The notes beneath the pieces are model-generated. The model saw nothing but the letters and a program-made list of their open reading frames with translations. It was not told the origin of the DNA and did not search any database. From a virus (taxonomy: Duplodnaviria > Caudoviricetes), in IMG/VR virus record IMGVR_UViG_3300030372_002992, positions 1 to 27,642 of that record: a stretch of DNA of 27,642 nucleotides; one strand, written 5' to 3'. The translations under genes and the position numbers were made by a program. Positions 19,843-27,642 of the stretch are shown piece by piece (position 1 is the first letter of the stretch; every line of letters begins with the position of its first letter).

Positions 19843-21219
19843 ATGACTACATCACTTATCTCACGTACTGGACGTGTACAATCGTGGCTCGATAACCCTG
19901 AGTCACGTCTTCCAGTTTCATGCACTGTCTTCGTCGTTGAAGACTCAATGGAGGGACCAAATGGAATCGAAGCGAGCTGGCGTTTTGCGTCACATGCTCT
20001 TAGAAATGGAGCGGGCTGCGCAATCCACCTGTCAAAACTCAGACCCAAAGGAACTGAATCTCGTAAGGGAGATGATGTCCTCGTTGCATCAGGTCCAGTC
20101 TCATTCGGAAAGATCTATTCAACACTGAACGAGATCTTACGTAGAGGTGGAACCTACAGAAATGGTGCGATAGTTTTACATATTTCGGCGGATCATCCCG
20201 ACGCTTTGGAGTTCATCACTACACCACGTAGTGAGTTGCCTTGGGTAAAACGCTGCATCAACATCACACCAGAGATGTGGGAAGCATGCGAGTTCAAAGA
20301 AGAACTGCTGTTCGGTATCAAATCTGGTGACATCTGGTTAAACAAAATCCGTCATGATCTACAAGGAAATCGAATCTATGGGAACGTATGTCTTGAGGTG
20401 TACTTGCCAAGTCGCGGCACCTGTCTCTTGCAGCATGTCGCTCTCTCTGCCTGTGAATTTGACAACATTCCAAGAGCTTTCCGTGAAGGGATGCAAGAAC
20501 TGTGCACACTCCATGGTCGAACTGGTGTTGGCGATTCAGGAGAGTATCTCCCAAGCGAGACTGACAGACAAGTCGGACTCGGGATGCTTGGACTTGCCAA
20601 TCTCCTACGGCGGTACGGCATAACCTACGAACAGTTTGGTATTGCACTAGATCAAGTAAATGGTGGTGATGTTGTACAAACACCTGCCTTTGCTTTGGCT
20701 AGTCAGTTCAAGACTGGTATTACAGAAGCTGCTGCTATTGCACGTAGCCACAACATGGTGCGAGCCTTTGCTATTGCACCGACTGCTAGCTGCAGTTACA
20801 GGAGCAAAGACCTAGATGGGTTTACTGCAACACCAGAAATTGCACCACCTATCAGCCGGACAGTGGACCGTGACAGCGGAACGTTCGGGGTACAAACATA
20901 TGATTACGGTGACGTTGAGATCGCATCAGAGGTTGGCTGGGACGCTTACAAGCGTGTAGCTGATGGTCTGATGGTGATGCTTAGCGACACAGGGCTTCTT
21001 CATGGGTATAGCTTCAACAGTTGGAGTGATGTTGTCACGTACGACAACGCCTTTATCGAAGAGTGGCTACGGTCCCCACAAACGAGCCTCTACTACAGCC
21101 TCCAAGTCATGGGAGATGTACAAGATAAATCTGATGCGTACGCTGCATTGAAAGACGACGACATAGAACATTATCTGGAGGACATTCTAAATGAACCACA
21201 ATGTGACTGTCAGGAATGA
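19843..21219 (+). CDS. nrdA: Ribonucleotide reductase large subunit, minimal (cyanophage clade, class O-slash-like)
   Basis: PVSCTV, NVCLE (N-x-C-x-E), APTASCS, SLYY pair, C-terminal CDC; only 458 aa with no ATP cone. Confidence 0.9.
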   Translation: MTTSLISRTGRVQSWLDNPESRLPVSCTVFVVEDSMEGPNGIEASWRFASHALRNGAGCAIHLSKLRPKGTESRKGDDVLVASGPVSFGKIYSTLNEILRRGGTYRNGAIVLHISADHPDALEFITTPRSELPWVKRCINITPEMWEACEFKEELLFGIKSGDIWLNKIRHDLQGNRIYGNVCLEVYLPSRGTCLLQHVALSACEFDNIPRAFREGMQELCTLHGRTGVGDSGEYLPSETDRQVGLGMLGLANLLRRYGITYEQFGIALDQVNGGDVVQTPAFALASQFKTGITEAAAIARSHNMVRAFAIAPTASCSYRSKDLDGFTATPEIAPPISRTVDRDSGTFGVQTYDYGDVEIASEVGWDAYKRVADGLMVMLSDTGLLHGYSFNSWSDVVTYDNAFIEEWLRSPQTSLYYSLQVMGDVQDKSDAYAALKDDDIEHYLEDILNEPQCDCQE

Positions 21220-21656
21220 ATCCTTATCAAAAACTAATGGCGCGGAAGCGCAAATGGACACCAGTCCAAACAGACGCCGGAGCTTGCAAGGAGGGTGCGG
21301 AGGAGACTCTGTACCGTGCACTTGCTCTACGGCACATGGAACTACCTGTGGGGGATTTCATCACTGATGCTCTTACCACTGAAATACCAGAAGTCGCCAG
21401 AGAAATACTCATCTCAAATGTACGGGATGAAGAGAACCACGACGTGGCACTTGGTTACATCGCCAATGCTTTCGGCGTTGATCAAAAGGCGGAGGCGGAA
21501 GCGATCAGGCTACGGGATGCGTGGACTTCGCATCCAGATCACACGATCGTCAAAGCAATGGTTGCCGAGCGTGCAATTTTCTTTGTACTACTCCCATTCT
21601 TTAGAGCTAATGGTGACCCTGGTATGCGAACGGTGTCTGCGGACATCAGTAGAGAT
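21216..21656 (+). CDS. nrdB: RNR small (ferritin-like) subunit, exon 1
   Basis: DEENH and AERAIF ligand motifs; ends ...SADISRD at the predicted 5' splice site. Confidence 0.88.
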
Positions 21657-21891
21657 TGATTTGTTGGTCTCTACTATAAAAAACTAGGTGAATTGCTGGA
21701 ACTCCACCTTAATGGACAATCAGCAGCCAAGCCAACCTACAAGTTGGAAGGTTCAACGACTAACTCCCGAGTGGCAACACAGTAATGGAGACACGAGTGC
21801 CTAGCACCTTAATGGTGAAGATATAGTCTGAACTGCATCAATGGTAAAGATGCAGATGCAAGAGATAAAGAGCTTTTGCGATAACAAATTG
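21657..21891 (+). ncRNA. Group I self-splicing intron, 235 nt, no ORF
   Basis: P AATTGCTGGAA, Q AATCAGCAGC, R GTTCAACGACTA, S AAGATATAGTCT; P1 AGAGAT/GTCTCT with U-G at the splice site; P3 CTAGGT/GCCTAG; terminal G; splicing restores D|EQIH in frame. Confidence 0.93.
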
Positions 21892-22167
21892 GAACAAATA
21901 CACGTGGCAACCAACAGCCTCGTATGCAAGGAGCTGGGGCTTGAAGCGTCACCTTCCTTGGACCGATTGAGAAAGGCGACGATCAACTGGGTGATGCAAC
22001 CTCTGAAGGTTGGAGCATCTGATAAAAAACTAGACAAAAAATTTTGGTTAGATCAGAGCGACAATCTTATGTATCAGGGTAAAGCACCTGAACTTTCTTT
22101 CACCAAAGCAGCTCGGATGCCTGCCTTCTTTGAGCACAGCAATGTCAATCTACCCCAATACGCTTGA
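21892..22167 (+). CDS. nrdB: RNR small subunit, exon 2
   Basis: Begins EQIHVATN, completing DExxH; spliced protein is 238 aa ending PQYA. Confidence 0.88.
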   Translation, partial: EQIHVATNSLVCKELGLEASPSLDRLRKATINWVMQPLKVGASDKKLDKKFWLDQSDNLMYQGKAPELSFTKAARMPAFFEHSNVNLPQYA

Positions 22168-25720: not shown

Positions 25721-26800
25721 ATGGCTTCTACAAGTATTTCACAAGGTAGGAGTAGTGCCTGGGAAGAGTTTTGTTCTTGGGTGACTTCTACAAATAACCG
25801 TCTTTATGTCGGGTGGTTTGGGACACTGATGATTCCGTGTCTTCTTACAGCCACCACTTGCTTCATCATCGCCTTCATTGCAGCACCTCCTGTTGATATT
25901 GATGGCATCCGTGAGCCCGTTGCTGGCTCTTTAATTTATGGAAACAACATCATCTCCGGCGCTGTCGTGCCTAGCAGCAACGCCATCGGTCTGCACCTGT
26001 ACCCAGTGTGGGAAGCGGGTTCTCTTGACGAATGGCTTTATAACGGCGGACCGTACCAGCTCGTGGTGTTCCACTTTCTGCTCGGTATCGTCGCTTACAT
26101 GGGACGCGAATGGGAACTTAGTTACCGATTAGGAATGAGGCCCTGGATTTGTGTTGCATACAGTGCACCGGTCGCTGCGGCTGCTGCTGTCTTTCTTGTT
26201 TATCCCCTTGGACAAGGTTCCTTCTCTGACGGCATGCCGCTGGGCATCTCCGGCACCTTCAACTTCATGTTGGTGTTCCAGGCTGAGCACAACATCCTGA
26301 TGCACCCCTTCCACATGCTTGGTGTGGCTGGCGTCTTCGGTGGGGCTCTGTTCTCAGCTATGCACGGCTCTCTGGTCACGTCGTCCCTCGTTCGTGAAAC
26401 GACTGAAAAAGAAAGTCTCAACTATGGCTACAAGTTTGGTCAAGAAGAGGAGACGTATAACATCGTCGCTGCGCATGGTTATTTTGGACGTTTGATTTTC
26501 CAATATGCTTCATTTAATAATAGCCGTTCACTCCACTTCTTCCTTGCAGCTTGGCCTGTCGTCGGCATTTGGTTTACAGCTCTGGGTGTTAGCACTATGG
26601 CTTTTAATCTTAACGGTCTTAACTTTAACCAGTCCGTCTTGACCAAACAGGGTCAGGTTGTAAACACCTGGGCTGATGTCTTGAATAGAGCTGACCTTGG
26701 ACTTGAGGTTATGCACGAAAGAAATGCACATAACTTCCCGCTTGATCTAGCAGCTAACAACATCGTGCCTATCGCACTGAAGACACCTGCTATTGGTTAA
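25721..26800 (+). CDS. psbA: Photosystem II D1 protein
   Basis: [44 protein letters not shown]; GREWELS (Glu130 form); uninterrupted. Confidence 0.99.
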
Positions 26801-26809
26801 GCATCCCGT

Positions 26810-27037
26810 CCGTTCATCTTCTTCTTTATGGAATACGAGATTACAGTTAACGATGCTTACGTTGAACTTATGCACAAAGCTGTCAGCCATTACCTTAAGT
26901 TCTGGCCTGGTGGTGAACCTGGTGAGCAAGAAGCTTTAAAGGTTCTTCTAGCACAACTTGATAGATTGAAACTTGAAGTCTTGTTTGACACTATGTAGAA
27001 GACGCATGCTACCCAAGGCATGGAACGGGGTCTTGGG
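26810..27037 (+). promoter_or_regulatory. Glutamine-II (Downstream-peptide) riboswitch with a large P2-loop insertion
   Basis: P1 CCGTTC/GAACGG, P2 TCTTCT/AGAAGA, CGCA, pseudoknot CCCAAGGC/GTCTTGGG; directly upstream of a YRG peptide ORF. Confidence 0.75.
26828..26998 (+). CDS. Hypothetical protein (56 aa) nested in the riboswitch P2 loop
   Basis: Not in track. MEYEITVNDAYVELMHKAVSHYLKFWPGGEPGEQEALKVLLAQLDRLKLEVLFDTM*; phage-like codon use. Confidence 0.7.
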   Translation: MEYEITVNDAYVELMHKAVSHYLKFWPGGEPGEQEALKVLLAQLDRLKLEVLFDTM

Positions 27038-27058
27038 ATCTCTTCGGAGGTAAACACA

Positions 27059-27154
27059 ATGACGAAACTTGAACTCAAGCAACGTGTCCGTGAGCAGCAG
27101 CAAGCTGCAAAGGAACTGAAGCTCAAGTATCGCGGTGTCGCATACACACGATGA
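27059..27154 (+). CDS. DUF4278-like small peptide (31 aa)
   Basis: MTKLELKQRVREQQQAAKELKLKYRGVAYTR*; L.YRGV.Y motif; GGAGG RBS inside an ATCTC-TTCG-GAGGT hairpin. Confidence 0.8.
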   Translation: MTKLELKQRVREQQQAAKELKLKYRGVAYTR

Positions 27155-27314
27155 TCCGTTAAAGCGGGTGGCAGGGTGCGAACCCCTGCCCATCAATTGG
27201 CTTTGGCCCGGTAAGCCGGATACCCTTAGCCGTCTAGACGGTGGGATAGACCACAACTTACAACTGAATAACTCTGAACGTTCAGAGAGTTAATGATAAA
27301 CACTCTCTTTAAAA

Positions 27315-27642
27315 ATGGCACAACAAACTTCTGATCTGACTACTTCGCTAACACAGGTAGGTCAGTCTAATCTTTCCGGTGATAAGCGAGCTTTGTATTT
27401 GAAGCTCTTCTCTGGCGAGATGTTCAAAGGCTTCCAGCACAATGCTATCGCTCGCGATCTTGTGATGAAGCGTACACTTAAGAACGGCAAGTCATTGCAG
27501 TTCATCTACACGGGTCGTACAAAAGCCGAGTACCATACTCCTGGCAACGCAATCCTCGGTAACTCCGACGGTGCGCCTCCCGTGGCCGAGAAGACCATCA
27601 CGGTTGACGATCTTCTCATCTCCAGTGCATTCGTCTACGATT
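27315..27642 (+). CDS. Major capsid protein (gp10-like), 5' part
   Basis: ALYLKLFSGEMFKGF...RTLKNGKSLQF..TGR...YHTPG...EKTITVDDLL; runs off the window end. Confidence 0.95.
   Translation, partial: MAQQTSDLTTSLTQVGQSNLSGDKRALYLKLFSGEMFKGFQHNAIARDLVMKRTLKNGKSLQFIYTGRTKAEYHTPGNAILGNSDGAPPVAEKTITVDDLLISSAFVYD

Follow-up and report, generated by a model that had tools for sequence, protein, structure and literature searches.

The window analysed here, one stretch of 27,642 nucleotides, is a 27.6-kb fragment of a T7-like cyanopodovirus with portal, scaffold, hli, outer-membrane-like, psbA and capsid genes. Downstream of psbA, whose TAA stop ends at 26800, we confirmed a glutamine-II aptamer (RF01704) whose two halves lie on either side of a 56-codon PHROG-628 gene. 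The closest cultured matches for this nested-gene region are S-RIP2 and KBS-P-1A, at ~75% identity. The locus comprises the following features:

25721..26800, plus strand: psbA (D1), the upstream gene, which is context and no fixed part of the element (Pfam Photo_RC, E 1e-90).
26811..26816, plus strand: 5' side of the pseudoknot helix that binds the ligand (C1-C5 and A6 as numbered in PMC6698751), placed by sequence, by mapping of the crystal construct and as the best matrix match.
26817..26822, plus strand: 5' arm of the variable stem, which closes the loop with the gene; it pairs with 26997-27002 and covaries across lineages.
26828..26998, plus strand: nested 56-codon gene of the PHROG 628 family (phrog_628, E 5.9e-10, residues 3-54).
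26835..26984, plus strand: predicted extension of the stem within the coding sequence, 26835-26854 pairing with 26965-26984 (ViennaRNA, 25 C).
26997..27006, plus strand: 3' arm of the variable stem, overlapping the TAG, and the linker C17-G18-C19-A20 (27003-27006), placed by sequence and crystal contacts.
27012..27037, plus strand: 3' aptamer half, an 8-bp stem (27012-19/27030-37) around A33..G42 (27020-29), within an RF01704 match at 26979-27037.
27038..27051, plus strand: UUCG hairpin over the GGAGG ribosome-binding site of the peptide (sequence; free and aptamer-constrained folds).
27059..27154, plus strand: gene for a 31-aa DUF4278-like (IF17-like, YRGV) peptide (Pfam DUF4278, E 0.0016).

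The motif coordinates of the original prediction, which was made from the sequence alone, all agree with the sequence: CCGTTC lies at 26810-15, A at 26816, TCTTCT at 26817-22, AGAAGA at 26997-27002 and CGCA at 27003-06, and CCCAAGGC at 27012-19 pairs with GTCTTGGG at 27030-37 through eight pairs, one of them G-U, enclosing GAACGG at 27023-28. In the crystal mapping, C1-C5 correspond to 26811-15, A6 to 26816, C17-G18-C19 to 27003-05 and A33-G42 to 27020-29, and every ligand-contacting base of the crystal structure is present in the window (C1, G18, C19, C39, G40, G41, A33-G42). The structural passages of PMC6698751 have G18 and C19 contacting glutamine and G41 pairing with C19; they name the variable stem P1 (it is the P2 of Weinberg/Ames and the P1 of Huang et al.) and call 'PK' the helix to which the original prediction gave the name P1. 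Of the six pairs proposed for that helix the inner five hold, and the sixth, C26810-G27028, is probably absent because G41 (27028) pairs with C19 (27005) in the crystal.

The window thereby has the pseudoknot helix CGUUC/GAACG with C19:G41 and A33:G42, a covarying variable stem directly 3' of A6, a covarying second stem around the 3' strand of the binding helix (27012-19/27030-37) and a position 5' of a short DUF4278/IF17-like ORF, the last on a weak Pfam match (19.2 bits, under the 25.3 cut-off). The GGAGG of this ORF lies at 27046-50 and its ATG at 27059, and the hairpin over the ribosome-binding site resembles one that follows the short-loop allele of S-RIP2. The departure is in the loop on the variable stem, which measures 174 nt in the window; the consensus drawing in the supplements of PMC2864571 gives variable lengths of 6-24 and 2-5 nt, and the first rows of the alignment there leave less than about 90 columns for the loop.

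The assignment of glutamine-II architecture was upheld by both halves. With an E-value threshold, RF01704 matches 26979-27037 over model positions 10-60 (28.1 bits, E 8.8e-5), the 5' arm in this local match being false, so the 3' half alone scores in Rfam, and at the gathering cut-off of 33 bits Rfam gives no match at the nested locus of the window. The true 5' half (26805-26819) is the best site on both strands of the 27.6-kb window for a matrix made from 31 short-loop viral 5' halves; it reaches 20.5 bits, the next site 13.1, and the 5th-25th percentile of the 31 halves themselves spans 18.9-21.4 bits. The Rfam cut-off was missed by nine of 11 nested loci and passed marginally by two (33.6 and 35.2, over a local stretch of ~50 nt). 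Because the element lies outside the compact size of the family and below the Rfam cut-off, we describe it as a glutamine-II-like variant and not as a plain member.

The nested ORF, from ATG at 26828 to TAG at 26996-98, is a gene under purifying selection, as had been proposed: it has homologs (221 representatives at E<=0.001), and dN/dS is about 0.1, with 0.12 in the window's lineage (29 distinct sequences, pooled Nei-Gojobori) and 0.10, 0.12 and 0.07 in three further nested lineages (29, 17 and 15 sequences; dS 0.7-1.0). AlphaFold predicts a two-helix hairpin from a 40-sequence alignment (pLDDT 89, helices 9-25 and 31-55). A PDB search at E<=0.001 returned no match for the protein, Pfam has no family for it, and only uncharacterised cyanophage proteins match it in BFVD, the ESM Atlas (best 0.89) and the homolog searches. 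In front of the nested AUG, the window lacks a Shine-Dalgarno site. In RNA runs, one contig of a relative (X4, 26826-27178) spans the nested ORF, the 3' half and the peptide, and another (X5, 26656-26877) the end of psbA and the 5' half; these contigs are no proof of transcription, because the shares are small (best 0.24) and DNA carry-over is possible.

We also considered a self-splicing intron or mobile element at this place and rejected it, with no Rfam intron match at E<=10 in 26600-27400 and no Pfam or PDB match; four metatranscriptome assemblies contained no joint that skips the ORF, a weak result, on contigs only, against excision as an intron. Separately, two nested copies carry internal deletions (L484, L487) and one an in-frame stop (L033), with both aptamer halves kept; these lesions may be real gene decay or assembly errors.

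The nested layout is real and widespread in T7-like cyanophages. All three core pieces are kept in 52 of the 56 closest protein-selected loci with 5' flank (L001-L033, L035, L310-L331), the other four being one truncated locus, L317 without its 3' half, L323, which has decayed, and L327, where the gene is free. A 5' flank is available for 34 of the 35 close loci, and the 5' half is present in all 34. Outside this count, 25 more distant loci comprise 10 nested and 14 free genes and one adjacent arrangement, L332, in which the PHROG-628 gene lies directly 5' of an intact short-loop glutamine-II aptamer (1435-1700), possibly a pre-insertion or escaped state. In L317 and L323 the 3' aptamer half and the peptide are deleted (around 1450-1750); L323 has in addition a decayed 5' half and linker, and its terminal Asp-Ala has become Gly-Thr.

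Pattern searches gave a similar picture. A pattern for the 3' half only had 120 matches in 5 of the 64 parts of IMG/VR (about 1900 estimated overall), of which 97 have the 5' half no more than 40 nt away, 4 have it at 41-56 nt, 15 at 160-186 nt and 1 farther off, while 3 lack it. All 15 long inserts encode the PHROG-628 family, and the nested layout makes up an estimated 14% of viral glutamine-II motifs. A second pattern, specific for a gap of 156-186 nt, had 119 matches (about 270 stretches estimated in IMG/VR), of which 117 hold a PHROG-628 ORF, and the remaining two are short aptamers caught through an upstream look-alike. Searched across the entire collection, the neighbouring gap classes had 6 and 4 matches, among which are two shortened copies of the nested gene. 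The 117 nested proteins form five clusters at 60% identity, nesting holds across proteins down to about 30% identity, and a Y[RK]G peptide lies behind 114 of the 117 loci. T7-like markers occur in 78 of the 79 nested loci longer than 1.5 kb.

Among cultured phages, S-SBP1 has the nested layout around gp32 with a YRGV peptide behind; this peptide gene carries no annotation in the S-SBP1 GenBank record (MT424636; L477 1665-1770). The loop-size polymorphism anticipated by the original prediction was found in S-RIP2, which has a short-loop allele (56.1 bits) at the locus where others have nested alleles. In GTDB the nested pattern had 12 matches, of which 9 are due to chance and 3 are truly nested; these 3 sit in marine MAGs outside the cyanobacteria, on contigs that we read as phage. 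In its strict form the pattern had no match in any cyanobacterial genome there. A pattern for nesting in the glutamine-I aptamer of T4-like phages had 120 matches, none with a true 3' half, a result that bears neither way on such nesting. Intermediate loops exist as well, since four glutamine-II aptamers (L054, L060, L078 and L082) carry non-coding inserts of 42-56 nt in the same variable stem, three of them with a common CAGGACAAG motif.

The aptamer is being maintained, and the expected covariation of the stem was observed. In the closing stem, our search pattern dictates the first pair and half of the second but leaves the third pair free; all 51 distinct arm pairs nevertheless keep this third pair, with C-G in 29, U-A in 18, U-G in 3 and G-C in 1. 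Positions 3-6 of the closing stem form a mean of 3.10 pairs, compared with 2.11+-0.13 in permuted arms (0/5000), relatedness being left in this comparison. Along a 36-row protein tree, 9 and 8 changes fall on the two bases of the free pair, 11 jointly; for four independent pairs the partner follows in 3.2 and never in the opposite direction, numbers too few for significance. In L010 and L019, which belong to the lineage of the window, TAG has become TAA together with a C to T change on the 5' arm, a compensatory step from C-G to U-A. In the second stem, each of the six inner pairs survives in 37-40 of the 40 distinct arm pairs, with at most six pair types.

Folding predictions extend this stem into the gene. 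The first and last codons are predicted to form a long helix that buries the nested AUG: all 37 nested domains are predicted closed, with a median of 13.6 pairs between the first and last 20 nt (25 C), and in 36 of them the AUG pairs with the 3' end of the gene. Among controls, 133 random windows have a median of 0.7 end-to-end pairs (95th percentile 9.4) and 14 free homologs have 0-9.4. When codons were redrawn from phage usage with the protein and the outer 6 nt fixed (40 draws each), the natural extension exceeded the recoded median in 22 of 23 sequences and lay in the top 5% in 18; the window itself has 12.6 expected pairs against a median of 5.8, and one of its 40 recodings was as high. 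Shuffling of interior synonymous codons barely altered closure, and the folding signal sits at the ends of the gene.

The binding linker is also coding, because the ORF stops at or past GACGCA (GAC-GCA, Asp-Ala) in 97 of 117 loci; in the window's lineage (17/117) the stop falls just before this linker. The drift of these two residues in L323 after loss of the 3' half, a single case, suggests that the Asp-Ala codons are held by the RNA and not by the protein.

We consider that the locus is likely, if not by much, a two-output translational switch, with glutamine shutting down the nested gene and switching on the DUF4278-like peptide. The ends of the gene would zip into the long helix, bringing the aptamer halves together and burying the nested AUG. 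At high host glutamine, ligand and Mg2+ would lock the pseudoknot helix onto the stem, with the nested gene off and the peptide on. At low glutamine, ribosomes would engage the nested AUG ahead of stem closure, or in its place, and melt the helix, and in most lineages they would traverse the binding linker and keep the sensor open. Initiation at 26828 would place a ribosome over the 5' strand of the binding helix, which lies 13 nt upstream, and elongation would melt the stem; folding and translation would therefore be mutually exclusive. Likewise, since the ends of the nested gene pair into one stem, nitrogen sensing and nested translation would compete on the mRNA.

The glutamine-II class binds glutamine (Kd 190 uM), and a two-piece RNA, cut elsewhere, still binds, according to the binding data in PMC6698751. 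The direction of the proposed switch is borrowed from a Prochlorococcus MED4 reporter, for which the relevant section of PMC6212724 describes an output that rose on addition of ammonium. Coupling between aptamer folding and nested translation had been suggested through ribosomes terminating on the nested ORF. The conflict between the two stands, and the route by termination only gives way to a more direct one, because a buried AUG and an ORF that runs through the GACGCA linker (97/117) would couple them at initiation as well. More broadly, we put at even chances the larger reading in which a riboswitch regulates a gene inside its own aptamer, one binding event has opposite outputs, the start codon, last codons and pocket are dual-coded, and T7-like cyanophages choose between two small effectors by host nitrogen.

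Several computed properties speak against such a switch. The long helix is predicted to close without ligand, with a probability near 1 in the isolated domain, so the AUG is possibly buried whatever the glutamine level, and rescue of folding may be all that the helix does. Because of a TCT repeat in the window, the closing stem can also pair 3 nt out of register, and this alternative is favoured by 0.9 kcal/mol over the aptamer register, which has a probability of ~0.4; constraining the RNA to the aptamer helices costs 6.5 kcal/mol, with the energies of pseudoknot and ligand not yet counted. The UUCG hairpin over the peptide ribosome-binding site is present in both computed folds, free and aptamer-constrained, which leaves the switching-on of the peptide by ligand without explanation; termination of the nested ORF near the peptide could also couple the two positively.

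Closure without ligand, the competing register, the folding cost and the persistent hairpin together make a tolerated, compensated insertion the main rival, which we regard as possible but doubtful. The gene would have landed in a variable loop and the helix evolved only to keep the aptamer serving the peptide, with nested output governed by kinetics, through ribosomes that load ahead of transcription of the 3' arm or through coupling to the upstream gene, and little dependent on glutamine. The loop is indeed the variable part of the family, non-coding viral examples having as many as 56 nt between their halves, and short loops account for about 84% of viral motifs (97/116 with a 5' half within 300 nt, an unbiased sample). 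Moreover, the PHROG-628 gene also exists as free copies, among others in T4-like phages, so riboswitch control is dispensable for the protein. On the other hand, a single gene family occupies the loop in 117 of 117 true cases, in searches whose patterns favour podovirus-type motifs, the AUG lies in or beside the stem in every lineage, and nesting persists to about 30% protein identity, with the adjacent arrangement seen only once (L332).

An improbable alternative is that of a hitch-hiking cassette, in which the riboswitch halves act as recombination arms, the gene spreads through podoviruses by converting short-loop alleles, and the structure persists only through selection against phages whose switch is dead. 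The short-loop allele of S-RIP2 and the nested alleles have a common junction sequence at the same locus, upstream genes vary, and the cassette is found at two genome positions. Furthermore, two types of 3' half and two types of peptide assort freely with near-identical nested proteins, and this free assortment of the flanks suggests recombinational spread via the conserved halves. In none of 200 bootstrap trees (58 columns) do the nested proteins form one clade; however, a single origin of nesting is not rejected on the same 58 columns (AU p 0.08 and 0.25), no nuclease or mobility feature was found, and dN/dS of 0.07-0.12 indicates a protein that is useful or at least selected. Such spread would be compatible with both the switch and the insertion, and it accounts for distribution but not for function.

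That the insertion destroyed ligand sensing, the halves persisting as translation signals or by recent descent, is very improbable: the window and nine of 11 nested loci fall under the Rfam cut-off and two cases are degenerate (L317, L323), but the core bases have been retained despite divergence at synonymous sites (dS 0.7-1.0), both stems covary, and only loci without their 3' half show decay.

Homing-endonuclease ORFs lie in peripheral loops of group I introns, for example phage T4 td/I-TevI; they are looped out of a structured RNA, with the start hidden in a hairpin and ends that overlap the structure. Those arrangements join a ribozyme to a selfish nuclease, whereas the window joins a metabolite sensor to a small helical protein. 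The T4-like cyanophage genes of PHROG 628 / T4-GC 876 (Syn9 gp7, S-SM1 gene 8) belong to the same family as the nested gene, with the WPGGxPxEQ motif and the same predicted fold, but they are free-standing, behind baseplate gp53 in six of the seven records examined, and the aptamer halves are absent in all seven.

As far as the relevant parts of PMC2864571, PMC6212724 and PMC6698751 / PDB 6QN3 describe it, the glutamine-II class (Downstream-peptide motif, RF01704) has the same order of elements, contact bases, both stems and a YRG peptide behind. In contrast, the variable stem of the window closes a 174-nt loop with a whole selected gene that extends the stem, and the element would control a gene inside itself plus one behind. 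The engineered two-piece glutamine-II RNA in PMC6698751 likewise assembles its core from separated halves on ligand binding; as presented there, it is artificial, acts in trans, is cut between A20 and U21 and has no gene inside.

The literature that we searched, mostly outside subscription journals, holds no description of a gene inside this or any other riboswitch aptamer, and the layout is apparently undescribed in print. The portions of PMC12379486, PMC9964418, PMC9004378, PMC9602691, PMC12695635 and 10.1101/2025.10.05.680603 that bear on the subject deal with glutamine riboswitches in phages or synthetic theophylline switches, without nesting, and no nesting is reported in the passages of PMC7885011 on the topic.

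If the proposed switch is true, the locus would represent a novel layout for regulation, in which the sensor RNA encloses the gene that it controls, and it suggests that lytic cyanophages read host nitrogen status post-transcriptionally. Standard covariance-model scans miss the nested form, an estimated one in seven viral glutamine-II motifs. The locus also gives a first handle on PHROG 628, a widespread cyanophage family of no assigned function, and a natural aptamer kept intact around a coding insert of 160-190 nt is useful for RNA design. The layout is testable in culture with S-SBP1 on Synechococcus WH7803, for which an infection transcriptome is published.

The suggested coupling to capsid or psbA expression found no support. 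The capsid gene starts ~280 nt further on in the window, behind a separate conserved structured element; the next gene is capsid in 67 of 117 nested loci and endonuclease/primase in 11, and the directly upstream gene varies among relatives of the window locus. In scans for transcriptional control, counts of promoters and terminators were at chance level.

Elsewhere in the window, a group I intron (21647-21885, plus strand; RF00028, 74.8 bits) interrupts the ribonucleotide reductase beta gene, whose halves are the ORFs 21216-21659 and 21841-22167; the intron measures ~230 nt, with no endonuclease ORF apparent. The structured element between peptide and capsid gene (about 27165-27256, plus strand) consists of a T-loop-like hairpin, a multi-stem part with GATACC and a final hairpin. 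It has no Rfam match at E<=10, shows compensatory changes in 14 of 20 predicted pairs (15 sequences), and occurs in 62 of the 117 nested loci and in many cultured podoviruses. Finally, a near-palindromic hairpin in the region of 27280-27295 (plus strand), just 5' of the capsid start, has counterparts in S-RIP2 and S-SBP1.
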